A DNA stretch of 64,000 nucleotides from an uncultured Chloroflexia bacterium (GCA_963829105.1 CAWHHF010000018.1:41374-105373); one strand, 5' to 3'; positions 1,109-44,638 are shown, counted from the stretch's first letter. The notes: generated by a model not told the origin, from the letters alone. Translations and numbers: made by a program.

Positions 1109-1185
1109 AGCTACGATTCGTCTCGGGACGGGCTCCCGGATCGAACGGATGGGCACCGCCCCGGCTGATTGCAGGGAGCCCGTCG

Positions 1186-5662: not shown

Positions 5663-5944
5663 CAGCCCCTCAGGAACCGTTCAGCGTGGCAACGGGCGGC
5701 TCGAGCGTCTGACCGTGGGCGATCCGGGACGACGGGCGACAGCTCAGAGGTCGCTGGCGTCCCATCGTGGTAGCCGTCGCATAGCTGCGGCCGCGATCGC
5801 AGCCTTGCCGCGGGACCAAGGCCAATCCGTGCGCGCAGGCCGCCGAAGTGGGCGACCGCGTCACCGTCCGAGCCTGCGATTGGCCCCATGACGGGCCGCC
5901 GTCGATCCGGTCGATGACGGCCCGCCTCCTACGGTCACGACGTG

Positions 5945-11630: not shown

Positions 11631-11674
11631 CGCTCAGAACCCGTTCGAGAACCGGTATTCGTCAGGCGCCGAGG

Positions 11675-12079: not shown

Positions 12080-12145
12080 TCTGCTTCATGGTGATGATGA
12101 CTCTCCCTCGGGCAGGCCCTGAGGCCAGCCTGGCCTTCAGGCACC

Positions 12146-13123: not shown

Positions 13124-13189
13124 CCGGTTCCTCCTTGGGCCATATCCACCATCGAGCTCAGCCGACTGAGGACGAGGGCGTGGGCGCGA

Positions 13190-13636: not shown

Positions 13637-13764
13637 GCGGCACTCCATTCCTGGACGATTGCCTGCACCGATCTCTCCTCGTGGCTGCGCATCGCATCGC
13701 TGCTTATGACGTAAGCATATGCCATAAGCTATGATGCTGTCAACGGCACCCGAGGAGAACGTGG

Positions 13765-14427
13765 ATGACACGCCGAACGACGCCAAAGCGCGCGCCGCTC
13801 AACCGGGACCGCGTGCTGCGCGCCGCGCTTGAGCTGGCCGATGAGGGCGGCACCGGGGCGCTGACGATGCAGAAGATCGGTCGCCGGCTGGGCGTGGAGG
13901 CGATGTCGCTCTACCGGCACGTCCGCAACAAGGACGACATCCTCGACGGGATCGTCGACCTCGTCTTCACCGAGGTGGAGCTGCCGGCCGATCGCTCGAG
14001 CTGGCGGACGGTGCTCCGCGCCCGATCCGTCTCGACCCGCGCTGCCCTGCGGCGGCATCCCTGGGCGATCACGCTCATGGAGTCGCGCATGGCGCCCGGC
14101 CCTGCGAACCTCCGCAGCCACGAGGACACCATCACCGTCCTGCTCGACGCGGGGTGCTCCGCGATCACGGCCACGCACGCCTACAACCTCGTCGACAGCT
14201 ACGTCCTCGGGTTCGCGCTCCAGGAGGTGAACCTGCCGTTCAGCAACGCCGAGGAGCTGGCAGCGATGGGCGAGGAGCTGCTCGCCCACGTGCAGGCGGA
14301 CGAGTACCCGAACTCGGCGCGGGTCGCCGGTGAGCTCCTCGCGTCCGGGTTCGACTACGGAGACGAGTTCGAGTTCGGGCTCGACCTCATCCTCGACGGC
14401 ATCGAGCGGTACCTGCAGGGGGCGTGA
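13765..14427 (+). CDS. TetR-family transcriptional regulator (TetR-class C-terminal domain)
   Basis: 220-aa ORF with RDRVLRAALELADEGGTGALTMQKIGRRLGVEAMSLYRHVRNKDDILDGIVDLV. GAGGAG RBS upstream. Divergent from the DUF6326-QOR-DUF6326 operon. Confidence 0.9.
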   Translation: MTRRTTPKRAPLNRDRVLRAALELADEGGTGALTMQKIGRRLGVEAMSLYRHVRNKDDILDGIVDLVFTEVELPADRSSWRTVLRARSVSTRAALRRHPWAITLMESRMAPGPANLRSHEDTITVLLDAGCSAITATHAYNLVDSYVLGFALQEVNLPFSNAEELAAMGEELLAHVQADEYPNSARVAGELLASGFDYGDEFEFGLDLILDGIERYLQGA

Positions 14428-15060
14428 TCGCGAGGCTCGGAATCGTGGGTGGCCCTCGCCCAGGCGTCCGCCCGCCGACAGCGCTCCGGCGTCACTGAGA
14501 ACCCACGGCGGGAGATGGCCCGGGATCGTCGCGGATGACGTCTCGCTCCGAATGAGCTCGACACCAGCGTCTGCTTCCACATCCGAGACGCGGCGACGGA
14601 GCTCGTCTCGCCGCAGCACGTCGTGCAACTCCAGGAGCGGGCGCGGGGATACGATGGGGTCGAACACGCCCAAGCACAGCTCGACCTGGAGCTGCCGCTG
14701 TCGGCGGGGCCGGTCGGACGACGGTCCGCTTCGGCGGCCGGTCCCGCGATCGGGCGGCTTCCCGCACCAGACCATTGTGGATTGACCGATGCCCCGATCG
14801 ATGATCGCCGCTGCGGCGGCCGCGCTGCCGGCAGAGCACCGTGCGCTCGGCGTGGAGGAGCTCGGCCGACCGCTTGCGGCGCGGGGACAGGCCCGCTCGA
14901 CGAGGCCGATCGCGGCGGTTCACCGGGCGTTCCGTGTGGACCGGCGATCCCGCCGACCCGGCGACGGGCCGCAGGCGAGCGATACCACCAGGGGTCTGCG
15001 CTGCCTTGGACCGGAGCTTGGCGCGATCCATCCGGAACCGGGTCACCCGTGCGCTCGCTG

Positions 15061-23089: not shown

Positions 23090-24493
23090 ATGATGGCACC
23101 GACCCCCTCGGGGAGACCGGCGTCCGGCTATCCGGCAGATGACCGTTGGGCCTAGTGTCCGGCCCCCGACCTCTGGCCGTGAACGGTGATCGGGATCCGG
23201 CGGCTTGGACCGGTGATCGGATAGGTCAGCTGACGTCGACCGGAGGAGCGGGTACCCCTTGGGGTCCGCCGAAGGAGGCTGGCCTGATGACGACGATCGG
23301 GATCGACATCGGGGGACGGATGCACGTCGCGGCGAGATGCCGGGACGGCGAGGCCCGGGCCGACCGCGAGATCCTGCGGGTCAGCCAGGACCGGGCCGGG
23401 TTCACCGTCCTCGACGCCTGGCTCGAGCGACAGCCGGAGCCCGTGACCCTCGTGACGATGGAGTCGTCGGGCCACTACTGGATGCCGCTCGCCAGCCACC
23501 TGCGCCGGCACGACGTCCCGGTCGCCGTGGTCAACCCGCTCGCGGCGAAGTACTTTGCAAGGAGCCGCCTGGGCCGGACGAAGTCCGACCCGGCCGATGC
23601 CCGGAGCCTCGCCGAGATGGCCATGCGCGACACCCCCGACGCCCGCGACCCGCTCGCCGGCGTCGAGCTGCGCCAGGCGGCCCGCTTCGCGATGACCCTG
23701 GTCACCGAGCAGGCGAAGGTCTGCCAGCGCCTGGTCCGCCTGGTCGAGCTGGGCTTCCCGGAGCTCGGCGAGCTGTTCGACGATCCGACCTGCCGGACCG
23801 CCCGGGAGGTGCTGCGGATCGCCCCCACAGCCCGGACGGCAACGAGGCGTCGGACGGCGACGCTGGCCAACGCCAACGGCCGTCCCGGCCATCGCCGCCT
23901 CGGGACGGCGAAGGCGGAGCGGCTCCAGGCCGCCGCGGCCGACTCGATCGCTGTCCCCGAGCTCGATGCGGAGGTCGCCTTCGAGGTCCGCCTGCTGCTC
24001 GACCAGTACGACCTGCTCGAGCGCCAGATCACCGACGCCGACCGGCGGGTCGCAGGGCTCCTCGACGGCGAGACCGCCCGTCGGCTCCAGACGATCCCGG
24101 GCGTCGGGCCCTCGATCGCGGCGACCCTCATCAGCGAGATCGTCGACATCGGCCGGTTCGACGACTTCGACCAGCTCCTCGCGTTTGCCGGCGTCCATCC
24201 GGCGGAGCGGAGCTCGGGGCGGAAGGGATCGAACCCGGAAACCTCCTGGCACATGAGCAAGGCGGGCAACAGCCACCTCCGGGCAGCCGCCTATCGGATG
24301 GCCCTGGTCGGGATCCAGCACAACCCGGTCATCGCCGCCCACTACGCTCGCAAGCGCGCCGCCGGCAAGTCGAAGATGAACGCCCTGGGCCACTGCATGC
24401 GCAAGGCCCTGGCCATCGTCTGGGGCGTCTGGCGCAACGGTCAGGACTTCGACCCCAACTGGGGGGTCGAAGCTTGACAAGACCCTATGGGAT
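23090..24493 (+). mobile_element. IS110-family insertion sequence (ends not resolved: left end somewhere in 23071-23286, right end within 24478-24493)
   Basis: A single DEDD-type transposase gene wedged between two convergent host genes (stops at 23070 and 24494). Long 5' non-coding arm (up to 216 nt) and very short 3' arm (up to 16 nt). No terminal inverted repeats, as expected for IS110. Confidence 0.6.
23287..24477 (+). CDS. IS110-family transposase (DEDD recombinase)
   Basis: ATG 23287 preceded by GAAGGAGG. Product MTTIGIDIGGRMHVAARC...VTMESSGHYWMPLASHL...VAVVNPLAAKYFA...KSDPADARSLAEMA...IPGVGPSIAATLISEI...SGRKGS...MSKAGNSHLRAAAY: the IS110 N- and C-domain hallmarks. Confidence 0.9.
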   Translation: MTTIGIDIGGRMHVAARCRDGEARADREILRVSQDRAGFTVLDAWLERQPEPVTLVTMESSGHYWMPLASHLRRHDVPVAVVNPLAAKYFARSRLGRTKSDPADARSLAEMAMRDTPDARDPLAGVELRQAARFAMTLVTEQAKVCQRLVRLVELGFPELGELFDDPTCRTAREVLRIAPTARTATRRRTATLANANGRPGHRRLGTAKAERLQAAAADSIAVPELDAEVAFEVRLLLDQYDLLERQITDADRRVAGLLDGETARRLQTIPGVGPSIAATLISEIVDIGRFDDFDQLLAFAGVHPAERSSGRKGSNPETSWHMSKAGNSHLRAAAYRMALVGIQHNPVIAAHYARKRAAGKSKMNALGHCMRKALAIVWGVWRNGQDFDPNWGVEA

Positions 24494-25814: not shown

Positions 25815-26594
25815 CTACCGCGTGACGGCGACCTGACCCGGGACCCCGACGGGCCTGCGATCGGGCCTGTGGTCGGGCGCGCCCGGAGACCTCACTCCCT
25901 TCACGAGCAGGTAGCCCAGCAGCCAGACCTCGGCGATGGTCGGCAGCATCATGGCGGACGAGTTGAGCGCATCCCCGGACGCGGGGTCCAGGAACACGGC
26001 AAGCGCCCCCACCAGCCAGCCGGCGCCTCCCACCACGAGCGCGACACCCATCGCCCTGGGGAACAGCCCCGACGCGTAGGCGAGGTACCCGAGCGGCACC
26101 AGCCACAGGCCGTAGAAGACCTGGGCGATGACGGAGCCGGCGTGATGCATGTCGAGCAGGAGCAGCGCCAGGGCTTTCGATCCTGCGGCTCCGAAGGCGG
26201 CCGCATAGGACGGCTCGGTTGCGACCAGCAGGGCGGCGACCGGGAAGACCTGCTTGACGCAGACGATGGCTGCCCCGACGGCGACGAGGACCACCATCGC
26301 ACGAGCCCGGCCCCCGTTCACGTGACGCAGCAGCAGGTAGAAGGCCATCGCTGTGAAGATCCAAGCCGCCGCCTGGACCAGGTCGGCAACGACGCCAGCC
26401 CGGACGAGTCCTGCGTTCGCCACCAGCTTCTGGGCGGTTGCGGCGGCGTCGTCTGGTACGTACACCGTGCCGGTCGCGCAGTTGAACGAGAAAGCGGCGA
26501 AGACGGCCACGATCAGGTAGAGGACACCTGCAATCCTCGCGCGGCGCTTGGGCGAGGGCTTGGCCCGGGCGGAGTGGATGATCGCGTTCATCAT
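25815..26594 (-). CDS. DUF4386-family polytopic membrane protein
   Basis: ATG 26594 after GAAGGAGAGAC. Product MMNAIIHSARAKPSPKRRARIAGVLYLIVAV...WLVPLGYLAYASGLFPRAMGVALVV...IAEVWLLGYLLVKGV. Confidence 0.75.
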   Translation of the reverse strand: MMNAIIHSARAKPSPKRRARIAGVLYLIVAVFAAFSFNCATGTVYVPDDAAATAQKLVANAGLVRAGVVADLVQAAAWIFTAMAFYLLLRHVNGGRARAMVVLVAVGAAIVCVKQVFPVAALLVATEPSYAAAFGAAGSKALALLLLDMHHAGSVIAQVFYGLWLVPLGYLAYASGLFPRAMGVALVVGGAGWLVGALAVFLDPASGDALNSSAMMLPTIAEVWLLGYLLVKGVRSPGAPDHRPDRRPVGVPGQVAVTR

Positions 26595-26648
26595 GTCTCT
26601 CCTTCGCTGCCCGAGTGCGGGAACCCCCGGGCAGCGCACCTCGCCGAC

Positions 26649-27395
26649 TCAGGCCGGCCGCCCGGCGGCTGCGGTGCCCCGCCACCTCGTTGTCTCACCG
26701 GCAGGCTCGGCAGCGATCACGGATGAGTTGAAGCCCTTGGCGATCAGCCACACCGCCAGGACCATCTCCTGCACGGCGAGCGGGGCCATGAGGACGCCGA
26801 GCGAGAGCCCGAACATGCTCCCAATCGCCGGCACGATGTAGAGCGCTGCCCCTCCGAGCCCCCACGTGGACAGCCACCGGGGCACGAGCCGCGACCGGTA
26901 GAGCAGGAGGTAGAACATGAGCGCGCCGAGCGCGAACGGGATGGCGATCAGCTGGTCCCAGGTCACGGTCTCGGTCGTGCGCACGAAGCCGGCCAGCGGG
27001 CCCGCGTCGGGCTGCTTGCTGAGCGCGATCAGCAGCAGCCAGCCCAGCGCGCCGACGAGGTAGGTGACCGTCTCGAGCCCGCCCCGGAAGACGACGTAGC
27101 CCATGGCCAGCGTCTCGTCGTACCGCCTGCCGACCGGCCAGAACACGACCGGGACCATTGCGAGCGCGAAGCCCATGAGCAGGACGAGCAGGGCTCCGAT
27201 CGCCAGCTGGTTCGGCTGCGCGGCGACCTGGGCGAGGTAGGCGGGGCCCGCCAGGACCGGGTCCGTGACGATCAGGCTGAGGGCGCCCGCGACCGTCCCG
27301 ATGATGAACAGCACGCCGATCCAGGCGGCTGCCTTCCGATCCGCGCTCATGCCTGGCTTCGGGGCAATTTCGGCGATCGTTCGGTTCGTGTTCAT
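26649..27395 (-). CDS. DUF4386-family polytopic membrane protein (closest paralogue of 6409..7155)
   Basis: ATG 27395 after AGGAGAGAAGAGC. Product MNTNRTIAEI...AAWIGVLFIIGTVAG...YRSRLVPRWLSTWGL...PLAVQEMVLAVWLIAKGF. Confidence 0.8.
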   Translation of the reverse strand: MNTNRTIAEIAPKPGMSADRKAAAWIGVLFIIGTVAGALSLIVTDPVLAGPAYLAQVAAQPNQLAIGALLVLLMGFALAMVPVVFWPVGRRYDETLAMGYVVFRGGLETVTYLVGALGWLLLIALSKQPDAGPLAGFVRTTETVTWDQLIAIPFALGALMFYLLLYRSRLVPRWLSTWGLGGAALYIVPAIGSMFGLSLGVLMAPLAVQEMVLAVWLIAKGFNSSVIAAEPAGETTRWRGTAAAGRPA

Positions 27396-27455
27396 GCTCT
27401 TCTCTCCTATCACTGGGCAGGCCGAACAGGCCTCGTGCACTTGGCTGGAATCGGA

Positions 27456-27480
27456 CCCCGCCGCGCCTTGGTCGGCGGGG
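27456..27480 (-). terminator. GC-rich hairpin between the reductase and DUF4386 genes (possible attenuator or processing site)
   Basis: CCCCGCCG-cgccttggt-CGGCGGGG, an 8-bp perfect stem. No clear U-tract. Confidence 0.3.
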
Positions 27481-27518
27481 TGTGGTCCTCGAGTCCGTCG
27501 AGGTCCGGGGGAGGACCC

Positions 27519-28001
27519 CTAATCGGATCGGGGCGACAGGATGACGACTGCCGTCTCCCGGGAACGCAGGGAGGCATAGCCGTCGAGATCCTTGTCGTAG
27601 ACGGCCCACATGGCCCACAGGCGAGGCCGTTCGTCCTTGTGCGCGGCACGTCCACGGACGGCGCGCGACCCTCCGGGGAGATCGACGGTCACATCGGGCT
27701 GAGCCTGCAGGTTGAGCCACCAGGCGGGCTCGGCATCGGCCCAGCCGTTCATGGCCATGGTGACGAGGTCGGGACCATCCTCGAAGTAGCCGAGGATGGC
27801 CACTCGCTCCTCACCGGTGCGGCGTCCGACCGTCCGCAGCCGCATCATGCCCCAGCGGTCGGCCTTCGCGGTCCGGAGGCCGATCCGGCCGCGGGTGACC
27901 GAGTAGAGGGCGCGTTGCGCGATCCAGAACGAGCGGATGAACCAGCGCGGCTGCAGGGACGGCGACTTCTTCGGCGGTTCTGCGGCGGTCGGGGCGGTCA
28001 T
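27519..28001 (-). CDS. Deazaflavin (F420H2)-dependent reductase family protein (DDN-like), paralogue of 5945..6412
   Basis: 160-aa ORF with ...WGMMRLRTVGRRTGEERVAILGYFEDGPDLVTMAMNGWADAEPAWWLNL.... 4-nt overlap with the upstream XRE gene. Confidence 0.85.
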   Translation of the reverse strand: MTAPTAAEPPKKSPSLQPRWFIRSFWIAQRALYSVTRGRIGLRTAKADRWGMMRLRTVGRRTGEERVAILGYFEDGPDLVTMAMNGWADAEPAWWLNLQAQPDVTVDLPGGSRAVRGRAAHKDERPRLWAMWAVYDKDLDGYASLRSRETAVVILSPRSD

Positions 28002-30718: not shown

Positions 30719-31476
30719 ACGACCACTACTTCAGCGACACGAGGGTGATGCTCGTGCGTTCCATGCGCCACGTCACCCGCAGCATGGACACCATCATCAC
30801 GGTGACGATCATGCCGATCGCCTTCATGCTGCTGTTCGTCTACGTGTTCGGGGGCGCCATCCAGGCGGGCACCGACAACTACGTGAACTACCTGCTGCCC
30901 GGCATCCTGCTCATCGCCATCGCCAGCGGCATCTCCTATACCGCCTTCCACCTGTTCAACGACATGCAGAGCGGCATCTTCGAGAGGTTCCACTCGATGC
31001 CGATCGCCCGGTCGTCGGTGCTGTGGGGGCACGTCCTGACCTCGCTGGTGTCCAACGCGATCTCCGTGGTCGTCATCATCCTGGTGGCACTCCTGATGGG
31101 CTTCCGTTCGTCGGCAGGCGTGGAGGCATGGCTCGCCGTGGCCGGGATCCTCGTCCTGTTCACGCTCGCGCTGACCTGGCTTGCCGTGATCGTCGGCTTG
31201 TCGGCGAGCTCCACAGACGGGGCGGCCGCTTTCTCGTACCCGATCATCTTCCTGGCGTTCATCAGCTCGGCATTCGTGCCCACCGCCTCGATGCCGGGGC
31301 CCGTGCGCGTCTTCGCGGAGAACCAGCCGGTCACCTCGATCGTCAACTCGATCAGAGCCCTGTTCGAGCAGCAGCCGGTCGGAGGCGAAATCTGGATCGC
31401 CCTCGCCTGGTGCGTCGGCATCCTCGTCATCGCCTACGCGCTCGCCATGGTGGCCTACCGGCGCAAGATCGCCTGA
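30715..31476 (+). CDS. ABC-2 type transporter permease
   Basis: GTG 30715 overlaps the upstream stop (GTGA). A six-TM protein with ...FERFHSMPIARSSVLWGHVL..., a typical ABC-2 permease. Confidence 0.9.
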   Translation: MNDHYFSDTRVMLVRSMRHVTRSMDTIITVTIMPIAFMLLFVYVFGGAIQAGTDNYVNYLLPGILLIAIASGISYTAFHLFNDMQSGIFERFHSMPIARSSVLWGHVLTSLVSNAISVVVIILVALLMGFRSSAGVEAWLAVAGILVLFTLALTWLAVIVGLSASSTDGAAAFSYPIIFLAFISSAFVPTASMPGPVRVFAENQPVTSIVNSIRALFEQQPVGGEIWIALAWCVGILVIAYALAMVAYRRKIA

Positions 31477-31825
31477 AATGGCCAGGGGCGGGAGTCGCCC
31501 GTGACAGGTGGGGCCACCGTGTCCTCCGAGCGGTACCCCGGATCATGGCCGTCTCGGCCGAACACGAGGCCCAGCTGACGAGGGTGCTCGATCCGGCGCA
31601 GCGGGAGGTGCTGATGGGCCTGCTGCTGGATGTCGCCGGGGGCCAGGGGAGCACCCGTCCGGGCCATGGGCCGCTGGGCGCGGCGCGGCACGCCGGTCGA
31701 TGGCCGGGAGCGCGCGGCGCCTGGCCCGGCTCGCGTGCCCGATACTGGACGGCGCCGCGTCACCGCGACGGACCGTCGGAGTTGCTTGATCGCCTGACCC
31801 TCGCGCCCGGCCAGCGAAAGGACCC

Positions 31826-33271
31826 ATGCGCCATCTCGGCATCGACCTCGGCACGGCTTCGGTGAAGCTGATGGTCCTCGGCGAGGACGGCGGCGAGATG
31901 TCGGTGTCCCGCCCCTATCCGGTCGCCGCCCCGTCGCCCGGCCGCGCCGAGACGGCCCCGCGCCTCTGGCTGGACGCGATCCGCGACGCGGCCCGCGAGG
32001 TGCCGGACCCCGGCTCGATCGCATCGATCGGGTTCTCCGGCCAGATGCACGGCGTCGTGCCGTGGAAACGCGGCGCGGGGGCGATCCATCCCGCGATCCT
32101 GTGGCCGGACCAGCGCGGTGGGTCGATGATCCCCGCGCTCGCGCGCCTGCCGCCAGAGATGGCCGCTCGCGTCCGCAACCCGTGGGCGAGCGGCATGGCC
32201 GCGACGACGATCCCCTGGCTGCGCGAGCACGAGCCGGAGCTGTACGCGGCGGCGGACTGCTTCCTGCTGCCGAAGGACCACGTCCGCTGGGCCCTGACCG
32301 GCAACCTGGCCACGGACCATTCGGACGCGAGCGGCACGCTCCTCTACGACTTCGAGGCGGCGGGCTGGTTCGGTGACCTGTTCGCGCGGCTCGGCCTCGA
32401 CGAGGCGAAGATGCCGCCCATCCTGCCCAGCGACGACCAGGCCGGGCCGGTGACGGCCGACGGGGCGAGGCGCTGCGGCCTCCCCGTGGGCGTCCCGGTC
32501 GCCGTCGGCGCGGGCGACACGGCGGCCGCGATCCTCGGCTCGGGGCTCGTCGACGAGCGCGTCGTCCAGATCAGCATCGGCACTGCCTGCCAGGTCGTGC
32601 GCATCGGCCGGGACCTGCCGGCCTTCGACCCGGCGCTGAACCTGTTCGCCGGCGCGGACGAGGGCACGTGGTACCGGATGGCGGCGATGCTGAACGGCGG
32701 GCTCGCGCTGGAGTGGCTGCGCGGGATCCTCGGCCTCACCTGGGACGACGTCTACGCGGAGGTCGGCGCGATGGAGCCGCCGCTGGACCTCCAGTTCCTG
32801 CCCTACCTCGCGGGCGAACGGACGCCCTGGATGGACCCCGAGGCGCGCGGTGCCCTGTCCGGGCTCGGCCTTCATCACGGGCGCCTCGATCTCGTGCACG
32901 CCGGGCTGCTGGGCGTCGCGTGCAGCGTCCGGCTCGGCCTCGAGACGCTCGGCACCGCGGGCGTCGAGCGCTACCGGCTCGTCGGGGGGAGTGTCCGGTA
33001 CCCGTACTGGAACCAGCTGCTGGCGACCGTCCTCGGGGTGCCGCTCGAGGTCTCCGTCGCCACCGATGCCTCGGCACGCGGCGCGGCGATCCTGGGCGCC
33101 CGGGCCATCGGGGTGGAGATCGCCGCGCCCCACGACGACGTCGCCGTGCAGCCCCGGGAGATGCCCGGGATCGACGAGTACTTCGCCCGGTTCACCGAGA
33201 CGTACCGGGCGCTGCGCGCCACCCGCGGCGTCGACCCGCAGCCGGCGCCCGAAGCGGCGACGGCGCGGTGA
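31826..33271 (+). CDS. FGGY-family carbohydrate kinase (xylulokinase-like)
   Basis: 481-aa ORF with MRHLGIDLGTASVKLMVL...IGFSGQMHGVVPW...VGAGDTAAAILG...YLAGERTPW.... Confidence 0.9.
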   Translation: MRHLGIDLGTASVKLMVLGEDGGEMSVSRPYPVAAPSPGRAETAPRLWLDAIRDAAREVPDPGSIASIGFSGQMHGVVPWKRGAGAIHPAILWPDQRGGSMIPALARLPPEMAARVRNPWASGMAATTIPWLREHEPELYAAADCFLLPKDHVRWALTGNLATDHSDASGTLLYDFEAAGWFGDLFARLGLDEAKMPPILPSDDQAGPVTADGARRCGLPVGVPVAVGAGDTAAAILGSGLVDERVVQISIGTACQVVRIGRDLPAFDPALNLFAGADEGTWYRMAAMLNGGLALEWLRGILGLTWDDVYAEVGAMEPPLDLQFLPYLAGERTPWMDPEARGALSGLGLHHGRLDLVHAGLLGVACSVRLGLETLGTAGVERYRLVGGSVRYPYWNQLLATVLGVPLEVSVATDASARGAAILGARAIGVEIAAPHDDVAVQPREMPGIDEYFARFTETYRALRATRGVDPQPAPEAATAR

Positions 33272-34131
33272 GGATCTTCGCCCGCGGCTGGAGCAACGGC
33301 TTCGACGGCCCGGGCCGCCGCCTCGTCTACTACCTCAAGGGCTGCAACATGCGCTGCCACTGGTGTGGCAACCCCGAGAGCATCGCCGCGGCACCCGAGA
33401 TGCTGTTCTACCCGGAGAAGAGCGCCTTCGCGGGCGACAGCTGCCCGCACGGTGCCGTCCGGGACGGGCTCCTGGACCGCCGCGCCTGCGGCCGCTGCCC
33501 GGACCACGCCTGCGTCGAGCGCTGGCGCGACCCTGCCTTCGAGCGGGTCGGCGAGGGGATCACCCTCGCTGAGCTGCTCGACCAGGTGGAGGAGCGACGG
33601 TCCTTCTTCGGCAGGGATGGTGGCGGCGGCGTGACCTTCTCCGGCGGCGAGCCGACGCTCCAGATGGACGCCCTCCTGGCGGCCACCGACGTGCTGCGCG
33701 AGCGCGGCATCCACGTCGTCATCGAGACCAACGCCTCCTCGCCGCGGTTCCACGAGCTGGACGGGCGGTGCGACATGCTCATCTGCGACCTGAAGGCCGT
33801 CAGCCGGGACCTTCACGCCCGCATGACCGGGGCCGGCAACCGGGTCATCCTCGCCAACCTTGCGTCCGGCATCACGATGACGGTGCGGGTGCCGCTCATC
33901 CGCGAGCTGAACTTCGTGCCCGAGGAGCGTGAGAAGATCCACCGGTTCCTGGTGGAGATTCGACCGGAGCGGGTCGGGCTGCTGCTGCTGCACCGCCTGG
34001 GGCGGCCCAAGTACCAGGCGCTCGGCATGACCTGGACGGCGGAGGACCTGACGCCGCCCGATCGAGACGACGTGGAGGCATTCCGGCAGGCGCTGGAGCG
34101 CGACGGCCTCGCGGCCGAGATCCTGAACTAG
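33268..34131 (+). CDS. Glycyl-radical enzyme activating protein (radical SAM)
   Basis: GTG 33268 overlaps the kinase stop (GTGA). Radical-SAM CxxxCxxC motif is present (KGCNMRCHWCGNPE), then VTFSGGEPTLQ. The auxiliary-cluster region has only a partial Cys set (SCPHG...ACGRCPDHAC). Confidence 0.9.
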   Translation: MRIFARGWSNGFDGPGRRLVYYLKGCNMRCHWCGNPESIAAAPEMLFYPEKSAFAGDSCPHGAVRDGLLDRRACGRCPDHACVERWRDPAFERVGEGITLAELLDQVEERRSFFGRDGGGGVTFSGGEPTLQMDALLAATDVLRERGIHVVIETNASSPRFHELDGRCDMLICDLKAVSRDLHARMTGAGNRVILANLASGITMTVRVPLIRELNFVPEEREKIHRFLVEIRPERVGLLLLHRLGRPKYQALGMTWTAEDLTPPDRDDVEAFRQALERDGLAAEILN

Positions 34132-34145
34132 GAGGCGCACGCATC

Positions 34146-36516
34146 GTGGACGACTGGATCGCATGCCTGGCGAGCGGCGTGGAGACGCTCCGCGGCGTCA
34201 AGCGGCATCAGACGGTCAACAACGCGTGGTTCTTCGTCCAGGAGGTGCGCATGCGCGAACGGGAGGACATGCGGCTCGCCGGGCTCGACACCGATTCGGC
34301 CCTCGGGCGGGCCGAGCTCCTGTGTCGGACTGTCGAGCGGATGCCGCTCGCGATCCCGGCCGGGAGCGCCCTCGCCGGTTCGCAGGACGGTGCGTTCTCG
34401 CCCTCCTACGCGCTCATCAACCCGAGCTTCAAGGTCGAGGAGTTCGCGGGCTACTGCGATCCCTGCGCCGCCTACGACGACATCGATCCGGAAGAGAGCG
34501 TGACACCCGAACGCGTGGCGACGGTGCGGGCGTACTGGGAAGGTGCCGGCTACGTCCGCGACCTGCGCGCCATCTACGAGCGCTACGGGCGCTACACCTC
34601 CGAGGTCGCCTTCTTCATGGAGCCGGTCACCGGCCACGTGATCCCCGACCTGCGCCCGTACCTGGCGCACGGCGTGATCGCGATCCAGGAACGGGCGCTC
34701 GCCTCCGGCACCGACTACGGCCGCGCGATGGCGCGATCCCTCGACGCCGTCCTGATCCTCGCGCGGCGCTATCGTGCCCTGGCGCTCGCGATGGCCGAGG
34801 CCGCCGGGCCCGGCCCGACCGCCGACCCGGCCGCGAAGGCCCGGCTCGAGACGATCGCCGCCCTGCTCGACGAGGTCCCGGCGCGGGGCGCCCGCGACCT
34901 GCACGCCGCGGCACAGGCGTTCGTGCTGCTGTGGCAGGCAATGGCGATCGAGCAGGCCCCGAACCCGTACGCGCTCTCGGTCGGCAACGTCGACCGCCTG
35001 TTCGCGCCCTATCGTGGGGAGTGCGACTTCGAGGAGGCCGTCGCGATCATCCGCCACCTGCTGTGCTTCTTCCAGGTCGGCGACCGCTGCTGGGCGATCT
35101 CGCAGAACCTCATGGTCGGGGGTCGCGACGTGGGCGGCAGCGACCTGGGCAACCCAATGACCGGCGTGGTCCTGGAGGCCTTCTTCCGGAGCAACGACCC
35201 CCAGCCGTCGCTCTCCGTGAAGGTGCACGCGGACACGCCCGAGGCGCTCTACCTGGACCTCGGCCGGTTCTTCTTCGCCCCCGGCCACCTGACCCCGTCG
35301 CTGTTCAACGACGACGCCCTGCTGCCGCTGCTCGGCGCGCAGGGGATCCGGGCCGCGGACCAGCCCGACTACGGGATCGCGGGCTGCCAGGAGCCCTCGA
35401 TCATGGGCAAGTCCTCGCTCAACACGACGAACACGTGGCTCAACCTCGCCAAGGTGCTCGAGATCGCGCTCAACGACGGCCGGTCGACCATCTCGGGCGC
35501 GCAGATCGGGCCGACCTGGGCCGAGCTCGGGTTCGCGGACGCCGCCGACGCGTACGCCCACGCCGAAGCCGCGTTCCTCGGCACGCTCGATGCGCTGCTG
35601 CCCGAGATGGCCGCGGCCGGCAGCGCCTGCACGACGCTGCTCGGGCGCGCGATGCCCGTGCCGTTCACGTCGTCGCTGATGGACAGCCTCACCACCTTCC
35701 GCGACGTTCGCGACCCGGAGGCGCCGGGCGCCACGTACACCGGCAGCGGCTGCCTCATCCACGGTCTCGCCGTCGTCGCCGACTCGCTCACGGCGCTCGA
35801 CGCGGCGTTGCGCATCTGGCCGGCCTCGGAGATCCGGGCGGGCCTCGCCTCGGACTTCCGGGAGGCGCCGCGGCTCCGGGCGTTCCTGGTCGCGCAGCCG
35901 AAATGGGGCAACAACCACCATGAGGCCGACGCGACCGCGATCCGGATCGCCACGGCCGTCTCCGAGCGGGTGAACGCGCTCCGGGACACCTCCGGAGCCG
36001 CGTTCCTCGCCGACTGGTCGACACCGAGCACGCACCTGCTCTATGGCTACTGGGTGGGGGCGACGCCCGACGGCCGCGCCGCGCGGACGTCGCTGAGCTA
36101 CGGGATCGACCCCCGGCCGGAGACATCTCGCAGCGAGCTGCCGGAGCGGTTCCTCTCCTTCCGCAAGCTGCCGTTCGGCCTGATGGCGGGCGGCTACGCC
36201 TCCCACGTCGGGATCTGCCCGGTCGACGCCGAGTTCCGGAGGCCGATCGACGGGAAGGCGCGCTGGATGCGCGACCGCGTCATCGCGCCGCTGTTCCGGT
36301 TCGGCGAAGGGGTGCCGGGATGCCCCCTACTACGTCTACTTCAACATCGACACGGTCGACAACCTTCGGGCGGTCCTGCGGAATCCGAAGGAGCTGGCGC
36401 CGAGCGGCGTCTACATCATGCGGATCCACGGCACGTTCGTGAACTTCCTGGACCTATCGCCGGCGATCCAGGAGGACATCATCGCGCGCCTCGAAGCGGG
36501 CGGGTTCGCGGCATAA
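34146..36516 (+). pseudogene. Glycyl radical enzyme (PFL2/glycerol-dehydratase-like family), frame-disrupted as assembled at a C5 run (36323-36327). The glycyl-radical domain lies in the +1 frame.
   Basis: Body motifs: GIAGCQEPSIMGK (Cys loop) and WVGATPDGRAA. After ...RFGEGVPG the listed frame turns to Arg/Pro nonsense. Own translation of the +1 frame from 36328 gives YYVYFNIDTVDNLRAVLRNPKELAPSGVYIMRIHGTFVNFLDLSPAIQEDIIARLEAGGFAA, stop TAA 36514-36516. Confidence 0.85.
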
Positions 36517-36543
36517 GCACCAGCCGCTTCGGGCTGCTCCCGA

Positions 36544-38088
36544 TCAGCCGGCGCGGCGCCGGCGCTCGTGGACGGCGTCGTGGAGCTCCGCGGTCGTGCG
36601 GCCGGCGAGGGCCGCATCCACCGGCCGCCGCCGCCCGCGCGGCAGGCCGATCCCGACTGCGCGTGCCGCCGCGCTCGGATCGTCGTGATCGTGGCCGTGC
36701 TCCTCCGGCGCCCACGGGACACCGGCCGGGAACAGCAGCACGAACATCTCCACCAGCTCCGGGTCGAACTGGACCCCGGCCTGACGGCGCATCTCCGCGA
36801 GCGCCTCCGCGTGGCTGATCGCCTCGCGATACGGGCGCCCGGCGATCATCGCCTCGTAGGCATCGACGATCGACACGATGCGGGCGCCGATCGGGATCTC
36901 CGAGCCTGCCAGGCCGTGCGGATATCCCCGTCCGTCGTACCACTCGTGGTGGTGGAGCACGATCGTGGCCGCGTCGCGCAGCGCGCCCGCCTGCTCCAGG
37001 ACCACCTGGCCGATCTTGGGGTGCTCGGCGACCACCCGCCATTCCGACGCGGCGAGGTCACCGCGCTTCGCCAGGATCTCGTCGGGGATCGCCAGCTTGC
37101 CAAGGTCGTGGAGGAGGCTCGCCGTCCGGATCCGGTCCAGCTCACCCTGCGGGAGGTCGATCGATCGCGCCAGCGCCACGGACGCCTCAGCGATGAGCGT
37201 GGACGGCTTCCCGGCCCAGGGCGCGCGCCCGGAGAGCGTCCGCAGGAGCGCCTCCTGGGCCACCGACATCGCGGCACGACCCGCGTCGAGCGCCTGCGAC
37301 CTGGCCTCCGAGCCGATCGGCGAACGCCGGACGGTGTCCTCGTCGCCGGTCTCCCGGAAGATGTACACCTGGTCGCGCCCGAGCGCCTTCGCGGAGTAGA
37401 GCGCCGCGTCCGCGTCGCGGACCAGCGCCTCGACCCGGAGGACGCCGCCCGGACCCCCCGCCACGCCCGCGGACAGGGTGATGCCCACCGTCTCCCCGTC
37501 CGGGAGGCGGACCGTGCTGCTCCCCACGATCCGCCGCAGCTTCTCGGCCAGGGAAGCGGCCGCGTCCACGTCGGTCTCGGGGAGCACGATGAGGAACTCC
37601 TCACCTCCGTACCGGCCGGCGAGATCCACGGTGCGAACGTTGGCGTTGAGCAGCTGGGCGACATGGCGGAGGACCCGGTCACCGGCGGCATGGCCGTGGG
37701 TGTCGTTCAGGCGCTTGAAGTGGTCGAGGTCGACGAGCACGACCGAGAGGGGGTGCCCGTAGCGCGCCGCGCGGGCGATCTCCTCGTCCACGCGGGAGAG
37801 CACGGCCTGCCGGTTGGCGATGCCCGTCAGCGGGTCCACGGTGGCCAGCCGCCACGTGTCCGCGACCCGGTCGGCCAGCCCTCGGAATGCCGCTCGCAGC
37901 CGTGGATCCTGGATCCGCTCGGCCTCGATGGCGACCAGGGCCCCCTCGTCCGCGGCGTCGGTGAGGCGCTCCGCGAGGATGGCCAGGCGCCGGTTCTGGC
38001 GCCCCACGACGATCGCCGAGAAGCCCGCCGTCCCGGCAAGCGCGCCGACCAGCGCGATCGCCAGCACGAGCGGGATGAACTCGACCAT
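36544..38088 (-). CDS. Membrane-anchored diguanylate cyclase (GGDEF) fused to an HD-GYP phosphodiesterase domain
   Basis: ATG 38088. N-terminal TM MVEFIPLVLAIALVGALAG. RTVD I-site 5 residues before RYGGEEF. HD-GYP motifs LHDLGK and HHHEWYDGRGYP. Confidence 0.9.
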   Translation of the reverse strand: MVEFIPLVLAIALVGALAGTAGFSAIVVGRQNRRLAILAERLTDAADEGALVAIEAERIQDPRLRAAFRGLADRVADTWRLATVDPLTGIANRQAVLSRVDEEIARAARYGHPLSVVLVDLDHFKRLNDTHGHAAGDRVLRHVAQLLNANVRTVDLAGRYGGEEFLIVLPETDVDAAASLAEKLRRIVGSSTVRLPDGETVGITLSAGVAGGPGGVLRVEALVRDADAALYSAKALGRDQVYIFRETGDEDTVRRSPIGSEARSQALDAGRAAMSVAQEALLRTLSGRAPWAGKPSTLIAEASVALARSIDLPQGELDRIRTASLLHDLGKLAIPDEILAKRGDLAASEWRVVAEHPKIGQVVLEQAGALRDAATIVLHHHEWYDGRGYPHGLAGSEIPIGARIVSIVDAYEAMIAGRPYREAISHAEALAEMRRQAGVQFDPELVEMFVLLFPAGVPWAPEEHGHDHDDPSAAARAVGIGLPRGRRRPVDAALAGRTTAELHDAVHERRRRAG

Positions 38089-40796: not shown

Positions 40797-41156
40797 TCAG
40801 TCGCCCCGGTGGGCCCCGCTCTCGATGCGGAAGCCGCGGCCGAGCCCGCGGGCGGGTTCCCAGCGCGTGAGCACCCGGTCCACGTACCCGGCGGGCGGCC
40901 CATCCTCCAGCCGCTCCACCAGTGCCTCGAGGTCCGCGCGCCGCCCTTCGGCCAGGACCCGGACGCTGCCGTCGGCCTCGTTGGCCACGAACCCGTCGAG
41001 CCCGAGCGCACCGGCCTCGCGAAGCGCGAACACGCGGTAGCCGACGCCCTGGACCCGGCCGCGAACGATGGCCTCGAGGCGCGCGCGGCCGGAGCCCTCG
41101 AGCGGGCCTCCGGCGCGACCCGTTGCCCCGGCGGCCCCCGGCGGATCCCCGTTCAT
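40797..41156 (-). CDS. acyP: Acylphosphatase
   Basis: ATG 41156 overlaps the holB stop (ATGA). Product ...RLEAIVRGRVQGVGYRVFALREAGALGLDGFVANEADGSVRVLAEG.... Confidence 0.85.
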   Translation of the reverse strand: MNGDPPGAAGATGRAGGPLEGSGRARLEAIVRGRVQGVGYRVFALREAGALGLDGFVANEADGSVRVLAEGRRADLEALVERLEDGPPAGYVDRVLTRWEPARGLGRGFRIESGAHRGD

Positions 41157-42399
41157 GCGACGCGCCGCCGGCGCGGCCATCGGATGAGCAGCACGTCCAG
41201 CTCCAGCTCGGGGCTGACGTTCCCGGCGACCAGCTCGTCGGCCCGGACGAGACGGGCGAGGAACTCAGCGGGGGAGCCGGCGGCCAGCTCCCGTGCGGCC
41301 GCCTCGATCTCCTCGAGGATCATGACGTTCCGGATGGAGCCCAGCGCTCCGTGCTGGGCAAACGCCAGGTCCCGCGCAACGCTGCGCCACACGTCCAGGA
41401 GCAGCACGAGGCCCCGACGACGGGCCGCGGCCGGGATCTTCCTCGGAGCGCCGTCGTCGGGTGGCTCGTCGGGTGGCTCGTCAGCTGCTTTGTCGGCTCC
41501 CTCGCCCGCCGCGGCCGGCCGCGCGATAGCCGGGCCGTCGGCCCGGGCCGACACCTGGCCGGCCGGTGTCGCTCGTCCGCGGGCCGGACGCCCGGCCGGC
41601 GCCTCGGTCGGGGCGGGGGGGACAGGAGCGCGTCGAGCTCCATCGCCCGGGAGAGGAGGGGCCTGGCGGAGGCCAGCCGGCGAGACGGGCCGAGCTCCAG
41701 GAGGTCCAGCAGGGTCCGGGTGAGCTCACCGCGAATCGCCTCGGCGCCGCCGGCGCTCGCATAGGCGACGGCCAGACCGGCGCGTCCGCCCGTCAGCCGG
41801 GCGAGGCGAGCGGCGGTGGGGGCGTCCGCGAGGCCGCGTTCCACGAGCAGGCGCTCGACGTCACGGACCCCCACCGTACCGAGCCGGATGCGGGCGCACC
41901 TCGAGCGGATCGTCGGGAGGAGCACCTCCTCGTCATCGGCACACAGGATGACGGTCGTGTCGTGGAGCGGCTCCTCGAGCGTCTTGAGGAGCGCCGACTG
42001 GGCGTCCTCGCCCGCGCGATGGACATCCCTGACGATCGCCACGCGGCCACCGCCCTCGACCGGCAGCAGCGAGAGCTCGGTGACGAGGTCGCGGACGCCG
42101 CGCACCTTCGACCCGGGGCCACCGATGACAACCTGGGTCCCGAGGCTGTCGGGTCCCAGCCAGTGGAGGTCCGGGTGGTTCCCGTGCTCCACCATGCGGC
42201 AGGTACGGCAGGTTCGACAGGGCCGACCGCCCCCGGAGGCGCCCGTGCACAGCAGCCCGGCGGCGAGGTCAAGGGCGAGGGCGACCTTGCCCACCGCCCC
42301 GGGGCCGCTGATGAGGATCGCGTGCGGGACGCGCGACGCCAGCATCGCGTGGGCGGCCGCGACCGCGGCCGGGTGGCCGACGGTCAGGAAGCCGTCCAC
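41153..42399 (-). pseudogene. holB: DNA polymerase III subunit delta' (holB), frame-disrupted as assembled at a 7-nt homopolymer (41615-41621); almost certainly functional in vivo
   Basis: N-part: HAILISGPGAVGKVALALDLAAGLLC...CRTCRTCRMVEHGNHPDLH...LLKTLEEPLHDTTVILC...TIRSRCARIRL. After ...LLSPP the frame must shift -1 to continue ...APTEAPAGRPA...LLLDVWRSVARDLAF...LDVLLIRWP (track ORF 41153..41554). The span is 1247 nt, so one added base restores 416 codons. GTG 42399 is the proposed start. Confidence 0.8.
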
Positions 42400-42424: not shown

Positions 42425-44638
42425 TCAGCCCTCGGCAGGCTCGGGAGCCGTCTCGGGAGCCGTCTCCGCCACCGGGGCCGGGGCCTCGGCGGACGCGGCG
42501 GGCTTCCGGGTGGTCCGGCGCCTGGGGGCCGCTGCGGGCGCGGCAGGCTCGGGAGCCGTCTCGGGAGCCGTCTCCGCCACCGGGGCCGGGGCCTCGGCGG
42601 ACGCGGCGGGCTTCCGGGTGGTCCGGCGCCTGGGGGCCGCTGCGGGCGCGGCAGGCTCGGGAGCCGTCTCGGGAGCCGTCTCCGCCACCGGGGCCGGGGC
42701 CTCGGCGGACGCGGCGGGCTTCCGGGTGGTCCGGCGCCTGGGGGCCGCTGCGGGCGCGGCAGGCTCGGGAGCCGTCTCGGGAGCCGTCTCCGCCACCGGG
42801 GCCGGGGCCTCGGCGGACGCGGCGGGCTTCCGGGTGGTCCGGCGCCTGGGGGCCGCTGCGGGCGCGGCGGGCGCGGCGGCTTGGGGAGCCGTCTCCGCCA
42901 CCGGGGCCGGGGCCTCGGCGGACGCCGGGGTCGAGGCACCCGCAGGAGCCGTAGGACGGGATCGCTGCAGCTGCGCGCGGAGCATCTGCTCGAGCTCCGG
43001 CGGTACCTCGCTCCACTCCTCGCCGCCCGTGCGCGGGGCACGGTCGACACGGTCCTGACGCTCCGGGCGCGGCCCGCGCGGGGGCTGCTGCCCGCCGCGA
43101 CCGCCGCCACCGGTGCTGCCGCCCCCGCCGGGGCTGCCGCCACCTGTCCGGCCACCGCGGGCCGGCTCGGCATAGCGGCTCGGGCCGGCGCCCCGGCCAC
43201 CGCCGTAGCGCTCGCGCTCGATCGCCGCCGCGTAGGCGCTCCGGTTGCCGCCACCGCGGCCACCTCGGGCACCGCCACCGCGGCCACCCTGGCCCCGACG
43301 CTGCTCGGCGAGCAGGTACTCCGGGATCGCCGGCTCCTCGAGGTCCTCGTCGTCGTCGGGGAGCGGGGCCAGGCCGGCGGCCGGGCGTGCGGCAGGCGTT
43401 CCGATCTGGCGGTCCCAGACGGAACCGAACGGCGCCGACCTCGGCCCGCGCGGCGCGGCGGAGAGCGCGTCCAGGTCGTCGAACGGCGTGGGCAGGTCGC
43501 CCGACGGTGTCCGCGACCGCCCGCCGCGTGGCGTCCGCTCCGGGAGCGGCGCGGCATCGGCCGCAACCTCCTCGCCCTCGGGCTCCTCGTCCTCGAGCTC
43601 GTCGGACCCCTCGACCGGCTCACCGGCCTCGGCCGGCTCCTCACCTTCGGCGGGCCCGCCAGCCTCGACCGGCTGGTCTTCACGCCGGCCCCGGCCACGG
43701 CCGCGACCACCGCGCCGGCGGCGCCGGCGGCGGGCTTCACCCTCGCCTTCGAGCTCCGCGTCGCCGGCGGCGACGGCCATGCCCTCCTCGCCCTCCTCCA
43801 GGTCCTCCGGGTTCTCGAGCTCCTCCCGGACCTCGAGATCCTCAACCGGGGCGACGGCGGCGATCCTGGACAGCTTCTCGCCGGGCAGCGCCACGAGCCC
43901 GATCGGCGCCGCACCGCCCGAGGCGGCGACCGGCTCGCGAACCGGCTCGCGGCCGGAATCGCGACCCGCGTCGCGACCATAGTCACGACCCGAGGACGAG
44001 CGCCCGCCGCGCGAGCCGCTGCTGTAGCCGCCCTCGCGCTCGGACCGGCCGCGGCCACGACCCCGGCCACGACCCGTCCCCTCGGACAGCTTGTCGGGGA
44101 CCTCGGTCATCGACAGGTCCTCGTCGTCGTCCGCGACACGGCGGCCGGAGCGCGTGGACCCCTTGTCGACCTTGGCGATATGGGTGATGTCCGTGAACAG
44201 GTCGGCGACCTCGATGAGGTCCGACGACGTGTTGCCGCGGAAGCTCACCACCTCCACGCGCACGCCCATCTCCTGGACGGCGCGAATGGCGGAGGCGAAG
44301 TCCCCGTCGCCCGAGACGATGACCGCGACATCGAGGTTGCGCGCGGTCTTCATCAGGTCCACCACGAGCTCGATGTCGAGGTTCGCCTTGATCTTGCCGT
44401 CGCCGTACTTCCGGATGTCCTTGCTGACGACCTTGTACTGGTGCCGCGCGAGGAACTGGTGGAAGTTGCGCTGGTTCTCGTTCTCCGGGTCGAGCCCGGT
44501 ATAGGCATACGCGCGGACGAAATCCCGTCCCGCGGTGGCCGACTTCAGCAGCGTGACGTAGTCGATATCCACGCCGGCCGCCTTGGCCGCGTAGAAGATG
44601 TTCGCCACGTCCACGAAGACGGCGACGTTCTTCCCCAC
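42425..44638 (-). CDS. NYN (LabA-like, PIN-fold) nuclease-domain protein with about 560-aa low-complexity tail (acidic, RGG-rich and tandem-repeat segments)
   Basis: GTG 44638 after AGGAG. N-terminal MGKNVAVFVDVANIFYAAK...NLDIELVVDLM...DVAVIVSGDGDFASAIRAVQEMGVRVEVVSF. The remainder is E/R/G/P/A-rich. Confidence 0.85.
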   Translation of the reverse strand: MGKNVAVFVDVANIFYAAKAAGVDIDYVTLLKSATAGRDFVRAYAYTGLDPENENQRNFHQFLARHQYKVVSKDIRKYGDGKIKANLDIELVVDLMKTARNLDVAVIVSGDGDFASAIRAVQEMGVRVEVVSFRGNTSSDLIEVADLFTDITHIAKVDKGSTRSGRRVADDDEDLSMTEVPDKLSEGTGRGRGRGRGRSEREGGYSSGSRGGRSSSGRDYGRDAGRDSGREPVREPVAASGGAAPIGLVALPGEKLSRIAAVAPVEDLEVREELENPEDLEEGEEGMAVAAGDAELEGEGEARRRRRRRGGRGRGRGRREDQPVEAGGPAEGEEPAEAGEPVEGSDELEDEEPEGEEVAADAAPLPERTPRGGRSRTPSGDLPTPFDDLDALSAAPRGPRSAPFGSVWDRQIGTPAARPAAGLAPLPDDDEDLEEPAIPEYLLAEQRRGQGGRGGGARGGRGGGNRSAYAAAIERERYGGGRGAGPSRYAEPARGGRTGGGSPGGGGSTGGGGRGGQQPPRGPRPERQDRVDRAPRTGGEEWSEVPPELEQMLRAQLQRSRPTAPAGASTPASAEAPAPVAETAPQAAAPAAPAAAPRRRTTRKPAASAEAPAPVAETAPETAPEPAAPAAAPRRRTTRKPAASAEAPAPVAETAPETAPEPAAPAAAPRRRTTRKPAASAEAPAPVAETAPETAPEPAAPAAAPRRRTTRKPAASAEAPAPVAETAPETAPEPAEG
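42431..42930. repeat. Tandem array: four perfect 108-bp units plus a diverged partial fifth, in-frame inside the NYN-protein gene
   Basis: Unit starts gcaggctcgggagccgtctcgggagccgtctccgcc at 42435, 42543, 42651 and 42759. It encodes PAASAEAPAPVAETAPETAPEPAAPAAAPRRRTTRK (36 aa) repeats. Confidence 0.9.

Follow-up and report, generated by a model that had tools for sequence, protein, structure and literature searches.

What does a glycyl radical enzyme (GRE) do when its usual genomic partner is a sugar kinase? GREs underlie trimethylamine, p-cresol and H2S formation, as well as the use of hydroxyproline and anhydro-sugars, in gut and sediment microbiomes. The question is raised here by a cassette coding for an FGGY carbohydrate kinase, a GRE activase and a PFL2-type GRE, three co-directional genes at 31826-36516 on the + strand of a 64,000-nucleotide (nt) stretch of DNA from an uncultured Chloroflexia bacterium (GCA_963829105.1 CAWHHF010000018.1:41374-105373), hereafter the window. 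We find that this GRE is one ordinary member of a widespread family, adding nothing beyond hundreds of others. We judge it probable, at roughly 60%, that the cassette is a self-contained anaerobic catabolic module in which the kinase would phosphorylate a sugar or polyol and the GRE would then cleave a C-O bond by radical chemistry of the eliminase or isomerase type.

A first-pass annotation, made from the sequence, had described a co-directional trio with a GTGA overlap and a 14-nt gap, and all of its coordinates were borne out. The TGA stop of the kinase is overlapped by the GTG start of the activase at 33268 (GTGA, within GGTGAGG), and a spacer of 14 nt (34132-34145) separates the activase from the GRE, which starts with GTG at 34146. 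Chance linkage is excluded, because the trio recurs in dozens of unrelated genomes. The features of the cassette are as follows.

31817..31822, + strand: AAAGGA, Shine-Dalgarno-like, 3 nt 5' of the kinase ATG (direct sequence reading)
31826..33271, + strand: FGGY carbohydrate kinase, xylulokinase-like subfamily, 481 amino acids (aa) (Pfam FGGY_N/FGGY_C, TIGR01312, PDB matches)
33268..34131, + strand: GRE activating enzyme (radical SAM), 287 aa, GTG start (TIGR02494; Pfam Radical_SAM, Fer4_12)
33343..33366, + strand: CNMRCHWC, the CX3CX2C radical-SAM cluster motif (sequence; comparison of family activases)
33442..33513, + strand: auxiliary cysteines C59, C74, C77 and C82, in the pattern C-x14-C-x2-C-x4-C (sequence)
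34131..34135, + strand: GGAGG ribosome-binding site, 10 nt 5' of the GRE start codon GTG
34146..36313, + strand: GRE body in frame 0, residues 1-722 and the first two bases of Val723; PFL-like ten-stranded barrel
34635..34637, + strand: His164 of the GRE, family-invariant, aligned with His164 of the B12-independent glycerol dehydratase
35373..35399, + strand: Cys loop GIAGCQEPS (Cys414, Glu416), the C-x-E signature of GRE eliminases/isomerases
36314..36314, + strand: extra G relative to intact orthologues, giving a +1 frameshift (DNA alignments to the related loci L004, L005, L085 and L086)
36315..36516, + strand: C-terminal glycyl-radical domain of the GRE, in the +1 frame only, 67 codons plus stop
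36415..36441, + strand: Gly loop IMRIHGTFV, with the putative radical Gly762 at 36430-36432

By its sequence, the third gene codes for a protein of the PFL2-type GRE fold with the conserved set of Gly, Cys-x-Glu and His, accompanied by a dedicated activase. The GRE body matches the Pfam PFL-like model PF02901 with 273 bits and contains both motifs named at first pass, ATPDGR (as GATPDGR) and the Cys loop. Past ...FGEGV, frame 0 turns into nonsense, and it is the +1 frame that carries ...DAPYYVYFNID...IMRIHGTFV, the non-canonical glycyl motif that had likewise been reported, before a stop at 36516. An AlphaFold2 (AF2) model of the GRE (pLDDT 83, pTM 0.88) has the GRE fold, with Gly762 and Cys414 at the tips of beta-hairpins. 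A Foldseek search with this model gave TM scores of 0.80-0.82 to 9rco, 1r8w and 5i2g, and of ~0.8 to more than 40 GRE structures, including nearly every PFL2-type GRE. Sequence identity to every solved GRE is 18-23%, with the glycerol/propanediol dehydratases being nearest (21-23%).

The profile of the family aligns end to end with glycerol dehydratase (260 bits; 157 bits for the single-sequence match). Conserved between the two are H164, C414 (C433 in glycerol dehydratase) and E416 (E435), and Gly762 falls in the column of G763, with numbering counted from the alignment rows, where glycerol dehydratase has the loop RVAGYSA. Three residues of glycerol dehydratase are replaced in the profile alignment (S282 by A276, D447 by T428 and Y640 by approximately S625); we take these three to be substrate contacts in its published structure. 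The family also has invariant loops rich in Ser, Thr and Asn, with the motifs STPSTH and NTTNT.

The Gly loop departs from the GRE C-terminal fingerprint, RVxG[FWY]x6-8[FL]x4Qx2[IV]x2R, given in a June 2026 review (PMC13450708). In the window the region reads R-I-H-G-T-FVNFLD-L-SPAI-Q-ED-I-IA-R. It agrees with the fingerprint at Gly, Arg, [FL], Q, [IV] and R, but has Ile in place of Val and Thr in place of [FWY]; x is His. The Pfam Gly_radical domain (PF01228) was undetected in the C-terminal domain, even at E<=10.

The activase scores 187.8 bits against the generic GRE-activase model TIGR02494, above its cut-off of 174.35, and carries the Pfam domains Radical_SAM and Fer4_12. It combines, as the first-pass annotation had it, a CxxxCxxC motif (CNMRCHWC) with a partial auxiliary set, four extra Cys having been found. 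The CX3CX2C cysteines are kept in 75/75 family activases, and C59, C74, C77 and C82 are all kept in 79% of these 75. Activases with two clusters have eight auxiliary Cys; the four present here are predicted to suffice for one extra Fe-S cluster, not two.

A conserved family and its partners

A search with the repaired GRE protein found 1827 homologues. The top 120 are 54-91% identical to it, nearly all ~760-830 aa long, and carry PF02901 as their sole annotation; 119 of these 120 contain RIHGTFV, in the loop form [ILV][MLV]RIHGTFV. In an alignment of 28 sequences, reaching down to 54% identity, AGCQEP, GATPDGR, DWSTPSTH and NTTNTWLN are invariant or nearly so, as are DWSTPSTHLLYGYWVGATPDGR and RIHGTFVNFLDLS..IQ.DI..R. 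Gly762, Cys414, Glu416 and His164 are invariant in the family. The enzyme is not rare: a scan of one genome per species, which gives a lower bound, found the family in at least 581 species genomes, including those of cultured gut anaerobes. The nearest carriers are Chloroflexia and Limnocylindrales metagenome-assembled genomes (MAGs), at 85-88% identity. Among the Clostridia, carriers include Faecalicatena contorta, F. fissicatena, Blautia and a C. symbiosum MAG, and outside them Victivallaceae, Planctomycetota, Kiritimatiellae, Armatimonadota, Spirochaetes and termite-gut Bacteroidota. Victivallis vadensis DSM 14823, Faecalicatena contorta JCM 6483, F. fissicatena KCTC 15010 and Blautia sp. 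XA-2221 are cultured.

To survey gene neighbourhoods we clustered the open reading frames (ORFs) of 81 loci. An activase lies beside the GRE in 75/81 loci and an FGGY kinase is found in 68/81, the exceptions being mostly truncated contigs. The linkage to an FGGY kinase seen at first pass is therefore a conserved trait of the family and not an accident of this genome. At least four gene orders occur: kinase-activase-GRE, activase-GRE-kinase, GRE-regulator-activase-kinase and kinase-GRE-activase. The homology of the window DNA to L004 and L005 spans exactly 31796-36515, and the flanks are unrelated. The trio thus behaves as a unit, since this homology is limited to the cassette and the flanking DNA differs.

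This survey bears on whether the enzyme still works by a radical. It has been argued above that the loop is atypical, and if the glycyl-radical chemistry had been lost, the His-Gly-Thr protein would be a non-radical enzyme or scaffold that keeps the PFL fold, in keeping with the undetected Pfam Gly_radical domain and the unmatched Val and [FWY] of the fingerprint. We consider such a loss very unlikely. Gly762, Cys414 and Glu416 do not vary, the remainder of the fingerprint is kept (x6 L, x4 Q, x2 I, x2 R), and an activase with an intact CX3CX2C motif beside the GRE in those 75 loci would be pointless without radical installation.

The kinase of the window contains both FGGY domains, FGGY_N with 159 bits and FGGY_C with 81 bits, both above the Pfam thresholds. 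It scores 335.5 bits against the XylB equivalog TIGR01312, under the cut-off of 380.25, which the Faecalicatena counterpart exceeds (464.8 bits); its best PDB matches are the xylulokinases 5vm1 and 2itm, and an exact look-up of its product returned no identical protein on record. The GRE-linked kinases belong to two FGGY subfamilies, a divergent one of ~448 aa (57 loci) and a XylB-like one of ~495 aa (10 loci) that includes the window, L004, L005 and Faecalicatena. The divergent kinases, present at 57 of the 68 kinase-bearing loci, reach merely 115-155 bits to XylB. Across phyla, identity is 45-68% for the GRE, and the kinases are 21-32% identical to that of the window.

Other partners recur less often. 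A regulator with a GntR helix-turn-helix and a periplasmic-binding fold is found at 37 loci, a PMI-like cupin of ~356 aa at 29, ROK regulators at 10 and GH32 at six. In L076 (a Clostridia MAG, 222-6457) the GH32 gene lies inside the operon, between the FGGY kinase and the activase and GRE, and in L006, L007, L010, L011 and L031 it flanks the cassette. GatZ/KbaZ, PfkB, xylose-isomerase-like TIM barrels, ribose-type ABC transporters and GH51 are occasional neighbours. Downstream of the cassette in L004 (a Chloroflexia MAG, 10610-15073) lie genes for a tagatose-1,6-bisphosphate-aldolase-like protein (NF009498, 248 bits), a PfkB kinase and proteins resembling GatZ/KbaZ and URO-D. GatZ/KbaZ appears again in L042, L064 and L068; the kinases of the first two fall in the XylB-like cluster, and that of L068 is a separate singleton of ~502 aa. 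A further 247 flanking ORFs, drawn from loci of PVC phyla, Armatimonadota and Clostridia, were compared with Pfam in two censuses; no additional recurrent family emerged, the largest having 3-4 members. A loose hint that the substrate derives from a hexose, ketohexose or hexitol comes from the neighbours of GH32, PMI-like and GatZ/tagatose type.

Predicted chemistry and the order of steps

In the mechanism that we propose, the substrate of the GRE would be a sugar, polyol or anhydro-alditol phosphate made by the FGGY kinase. Judging by homology, the activase would take a hydrogen atom from Gly762 and the radical would be relayed from Gly762 to Cys414, whose thiyl radical, aided by Glu416 and His164, would abstract a hydrogen at a hydroxyl-bearing carbon of the substrate. 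The adjacent C-O bond would then be cleaved, either by a dehydration resembling those of glycerol/propanediol dehydratases or by a ring-opening isomerisation resembling those of YbiW/PflD. C-O cleavage is proposed because the C-x-E motif and the His are common to both of these enzyme groups. In many genomes the PMI-like isomerase and the GntR/sugar-binding regulator would complete the module.

Which of the two enzymes acts first is a separate matter. YbiW and PflD are C-O lyases of 1,5-anhydroglucitol-6-phosphate and 1,5-anhydromannitol-6-phosphate ('anhydroglycolysis'), with substrates phosphorylated by the phosphotransferase system (PTS). We favour phosphorylation before the GRE step, an order that seems to us probable, because the known sugar-directed GREs use phosphorylated substrates and because Ser/Thr/Asn-rich loops replace the small-substrate contacts of glycerol dehydratase. 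In the reverse order, the GRE would act on an unphosphorylated sugar, polyol or anhydro-alditol, and phosphorylation by the FGGY kinase would then trap the carbonyl product for use in central metabolism; the kinase might, for example, add phosphate to the terminal hydroxyl of a 1-deoxy-ketose or a deoxy-aldose. Two observations speak for the reverse order: the diol dehydratases, the nearest relatives by structure, have small unphosphorylated substrates, and the window and Faecalicatena kinases are xylulokinase-like. FGGY kinases typically phosphorylate ketoses, a product type that a GRE could generate, and the use of two non-orthologous FGGY subfamilies is more easily explained by recognition of a generic ketose product. 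We nonetheless regard the reverse order as a tentative alternative only, and rather doubtful, since the single known sugar-directed GRE system phosphorylates first; the STPSTH and NTTNT loops, moreover, would fit a ligand that is larger, polar or phosphorylated, a point that is suggestive only.

Several points weigh against the module as we propose it. Placing the kinase before the GRE leans on the precedent of YbiW/PflD and on the usual logic of catabolism. Given the departure of the Gly loop from RVxG[FWY] (Ile, His and Thr), formation of the radical is an assumption made from sequence. The PMI-like isomerase is hard to square with the 1-deoxy or 2-deoxy products of dehydration or of C1/C2 ring opening, and no written scheme fits all of the partners. 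The neighbour censuses yielded no recurrent transporter, aldolase or glycosidase that would narrow the substrate. The window itself holds a minimal trio without the PMI-like and regulator genes: a search of it for the PMI-like, GntR/periplasmic-binding-fold, GatZ, PfkB and TIM-isomerase genes of the other loci found none of them. Finally, no characterisation of the family was found in the literature, with subscription journals largely outside the search.

The clade might also perform a GRE reaction that has yet to be described, acting on a sugar or polyol phosphate made by the kinase, such as a radical beta-elimination that would expel the phosphate added by the kinase, or else an adjacent hydroxyl or ether oxygen. 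We think this unlikely. If true, it would mean a new functional GRE class and an anaerobic carbohydrate pathway in gut Lachnospiraceae, Victivallales, Planctomycetota and soil Chloroflexota, and the His-Gly-Thr loop and one-cluster activase would mark a distinct housing and installation of the radical.

The frameshift, the host and the rest of the window

Is the copy in the window functional? DNA alignment places the extra G at 36314, with GT[G]CCGGGAT in the window and GT-CCGCGAG in intact orthologues. Its deletion yields a 789-aa protein in which the restored residues, V-R-D, match the intact sister L085, which reads GGGGT-CCGGGATGCC at this site, that is, the window minus the G. The first-pass annotation had implied a repaired protein of 790 aa; the frame is indeed repairable, but the product has 789 aa and is colinear with homologues of that length. 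In the protein collection the window's own product is listed at 890 aa, and its 90% cluster holds one other frameshifted product (P0004, from L084) and three intact 789-aa proteins.

L084 and L085 are syntenic with the window on both flanks and L086 on the upstream flank, through genes for DUF4386, F420H2-quinone reductase, an ABC-2 transporter, GGDEF-HD and an acyl-ACP thioesterase. In L084, too, an extra base falls in the alignment column of the window's insertion, within different bases (GTA TCG as against GTG CCG). Nucleotide identity over the whole cassette is 94.07% between the window and L085, 94.09% between L084 and L086, and 92.25% between the window and L084. These identities make L084 the sister of intact L086, and the window the sister of intact L085. 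A shared ancestral frameshift of the window and L084 is thereby ruled out, the frameshifted copies not being sisters. Between the window and L084, dN/dS (Nei-Gojobori) is 0.195 in the body and 0.11 in the tail read in the +1 frame, matching intact pairs; for the tail in this frame it is 0.11-0.15 in comparisons of the window with L084, L004 and L005.

The gene for HolB, the DNA polymerase III delta' subunit (41156-42399, - strand), is also interrupted in the window, being split into two frames at a C7 run at ~41615-41625. HolB homologues of ~405 aa align with residues 1-259 in one of these frames and with residues 264-406 in the other. L085, a related assembly, has the same truncated product, a pattern suggestive of homopolymer indel errors in both assemblies. 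L084 shows further indels relative to all of its relatives: within the kinase 1 nt is deleted and 1 nt inserted (window-equivalent 31996 and 33164), and insertions of 57 nt and 1 nt lie at the kinase C-terminus (33261) and near the GRE stop (36484), respectively. Its dN/dS is nevertheless unrelaxed.

Taken together, the intact sisters, the unrelaxed selection, the insertion at the same site in a copy that is not a sister and the frameshift in the essential holB indicate that the extra base at 36314 most probably arose as an error in the consensus of a (long-read) assembly prone to indels. On the sequence evidence, the host very likely makes the full 789-aa GRE. The concern raised at first pass, that the C-terminal radical domain is genuinely out of frame and the gene dead, is most likely unfounded, and the apparent pseudogene calls for caution as a probable assembly artefact. 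If so, GGGGTCCGGGAT is expected at 36309-36320, whereas a pseudogene or a recoded gene is expected to have a fixed GGGGTGCCGGGAT.

The window GRE could instead be a genuine recent pseudogene, a GRE body without its glycyl-radical domain in a decaying cassette. The frameshift is, after all, present in the deposited sequence, at a site that is not a long homopolymer; L084 has an extra base at the same column amid other bases, along with its additional kinase and tail indels; and the host lineage may be largely aerobic, so that the GRE is possibly dispensable. We find this improbable, since each of the two frameshifted copies has an intact copy, and not the other, as its sister, dN/dS is unrelaxed at 0.11-0.20 in both body and tail, the kinase and activase of the window are intact, and the C7-run frameshift in essential holB, with its truncated product also in L085, points to consensus errors. 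Still less likely, and in our view extremely improbable, is a real extra base bypassed by programmed +1 ribosomal frameshifting or recoding, giving a regulated full-length GRE. The insertion does occur at one position in two lineages, purifying selection persists on the downstream +1 frame, both copies have a Val codon (GTG or GTA), one skippable base and an Arg codon, and a G-rich Shine-Dalgarno-like GAAGGGG lies immediately upstream. However, the two sites (GTG CCG and GTA TCG) have no slippery, stop or hungry codon in common, L085, L086 and every homologue further removed lack the extra base, the two copies that carry it are not monophyletic, and the assemblies contain other indels, one of them in holB. 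A point against an assembly error is that the same-site insertion in two assemblies could mark a real mutational hot spot.

The best named relatives of HolB are from Ca. Limnocylindrales (70-72% identity). The host is probably a member of the Chloroflexota/Limnocylindria, judging from these relatives and from the nearest named GRE loci, which are in Chloroflexia and Limnocylindrales MAGs. The same evidence led us to reject the actinobacterium-like genome proposed at first pass.

A scan of the whole window against Rfam gave no matches, and hence no riboswitch clue, and a promoter and terminator scan of 31300-36900 found none. An ORF upstream of the cassette, at 30936-31430 on the - strand, was dismissed as a shadow ORF; the true upstream gene is a + strand ABC-2 permease ending at 31476. 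Downstream of the GRE the relatives have undergone rearrangement, L084 having a 4.6-kb insertion there and L086 a transposase fragment. Transposase genes, one DDE/IS4-like and one of the IS110 family, are found in the window at 1057-2778 and 23143-24477. Tandem DUF4386 paralogues lie on the - strand at 25815-26648 and 26649-27518, and two stretches, at 27498-27961 and 5952-6387, match a gene of L084 resembling F420H2-dependent quinone reductase with 86% and 78% nt identity. At 42433-42925 is a 108-nt tandem repeat of 4.6 copies, 97% identical, in a region of ~79% GC; it codes for 36-aa units rich in Ala, Pro, Glu and Thr in the C-terminal half of an NYN-domain protein (ORF 42425-44638, - strand). 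A gene for the DhaK subunit of dihydroxyacetone kinase (Dak1, 381 bits) lies at 60164-61384 on the - strand, 24 kb from the cassette, with no GRE link established.

Comparison with known systems

The first-pass annotation had placed the protein outside the characterised GRE clades, and our comparisons agree. The best NCBIfam GRE score was 165 bits, to the PFL2-3 subfamily model with its cut-off of 678; among the equivalogs (HpsG, HpfG, HypD, CutC, PflB, IAD and HPAD), for which cut-offs are 1000-1100 bits, the best scores were 145, 133, 104 and 102 bits. PDB identity does not exceed 22-23%. The June 2026 review (PMC13450708) describes seven classes, none linked to an FGGY kinase and nothing like the present family, and notes that whole GRE clades are still without a function. 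Nor did we find a paper combining 'glycyl radical enzyme' and 'FGGY', within the same limits of journal access. With the glycyl-radical domain missed by Pfam and the NCBIfam cut-offs unmet, sources label the family only generically.

Glycerol dehydratase (C. butyricum DhaB1, 1r8w) and the propanediol dehydratases (5i2g, 9rco) are the best matches in both sequence and structure. They resemble the family in the Gly loop, the Cys-x-Glu loop, His164 and the TIGR02494-type activase. Glycerol dehydratase differs in having RVAGYS where the family has RIHGTF, and its S282, D447 and Y640 are not retained. The genomic context differs too: the family has an FGGY kinase, and neither microcompartment-shell genes nor 1,3-propanediol dehydrogenase were among the recurrent neighbours at the loci examined.

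YbiW and PflD share with the family the C-x-E loop and, as proposed here, action on a previously phosphorylated sugar derivative, and they are the sole known precedent that couples phosphorylation to GRE chemistry in carbohydrate catabolism. The first-pass annotation listed no characterised GRE class as typically operonic with an FGGY kinase; this stands, none being linked to one in the review, but YbiW and PflD do act on phosphorylated sugars. Their system uses the PTS instead of an FGGY kinase, and downstream an aldolase instead of a PMI-like isomerase; among the neighbour families that we examined there was no PTS or FSA-type aldolase. At ~20% identity and 178-192 bits by profile, they are no closer to the family than HypD or CutC. 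The fingerprint RVxG[FWY], which the family does not match, is taken from the review and not from the YbiW/PflD loop sequences themselves.

The aminoacyl radical enzymes (AAREs) reported in 2024 are likewise a PFL-like branch with a radical loop off the classical fingerprint and without assigned functions. In these, the radical Gly itself is replaced by Ala, Ser or Thr, whereas our family keeps the Gly and changes its neighbours, with His at -1 and Thr at +1. As for the kinase, that of the window is like XylB in having both FGGY domains and in its best matches, and differs in falling below the equivalog cut-off; most loci of the family use the shorter, divergent FGGY type.

The clade is a good target for study, being large and strongly conserved, with an atypical invariant loop and a clear genomic hint in the FGGY kinase, and the cultured carriers identified here make its function directly testable. 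Set against these known systems, what is new is not a new kind of system, but a widespread uncharacterised GRE clade that combines an atypical radical loop, an activase with one auxiliary cluster and a kinase partner.

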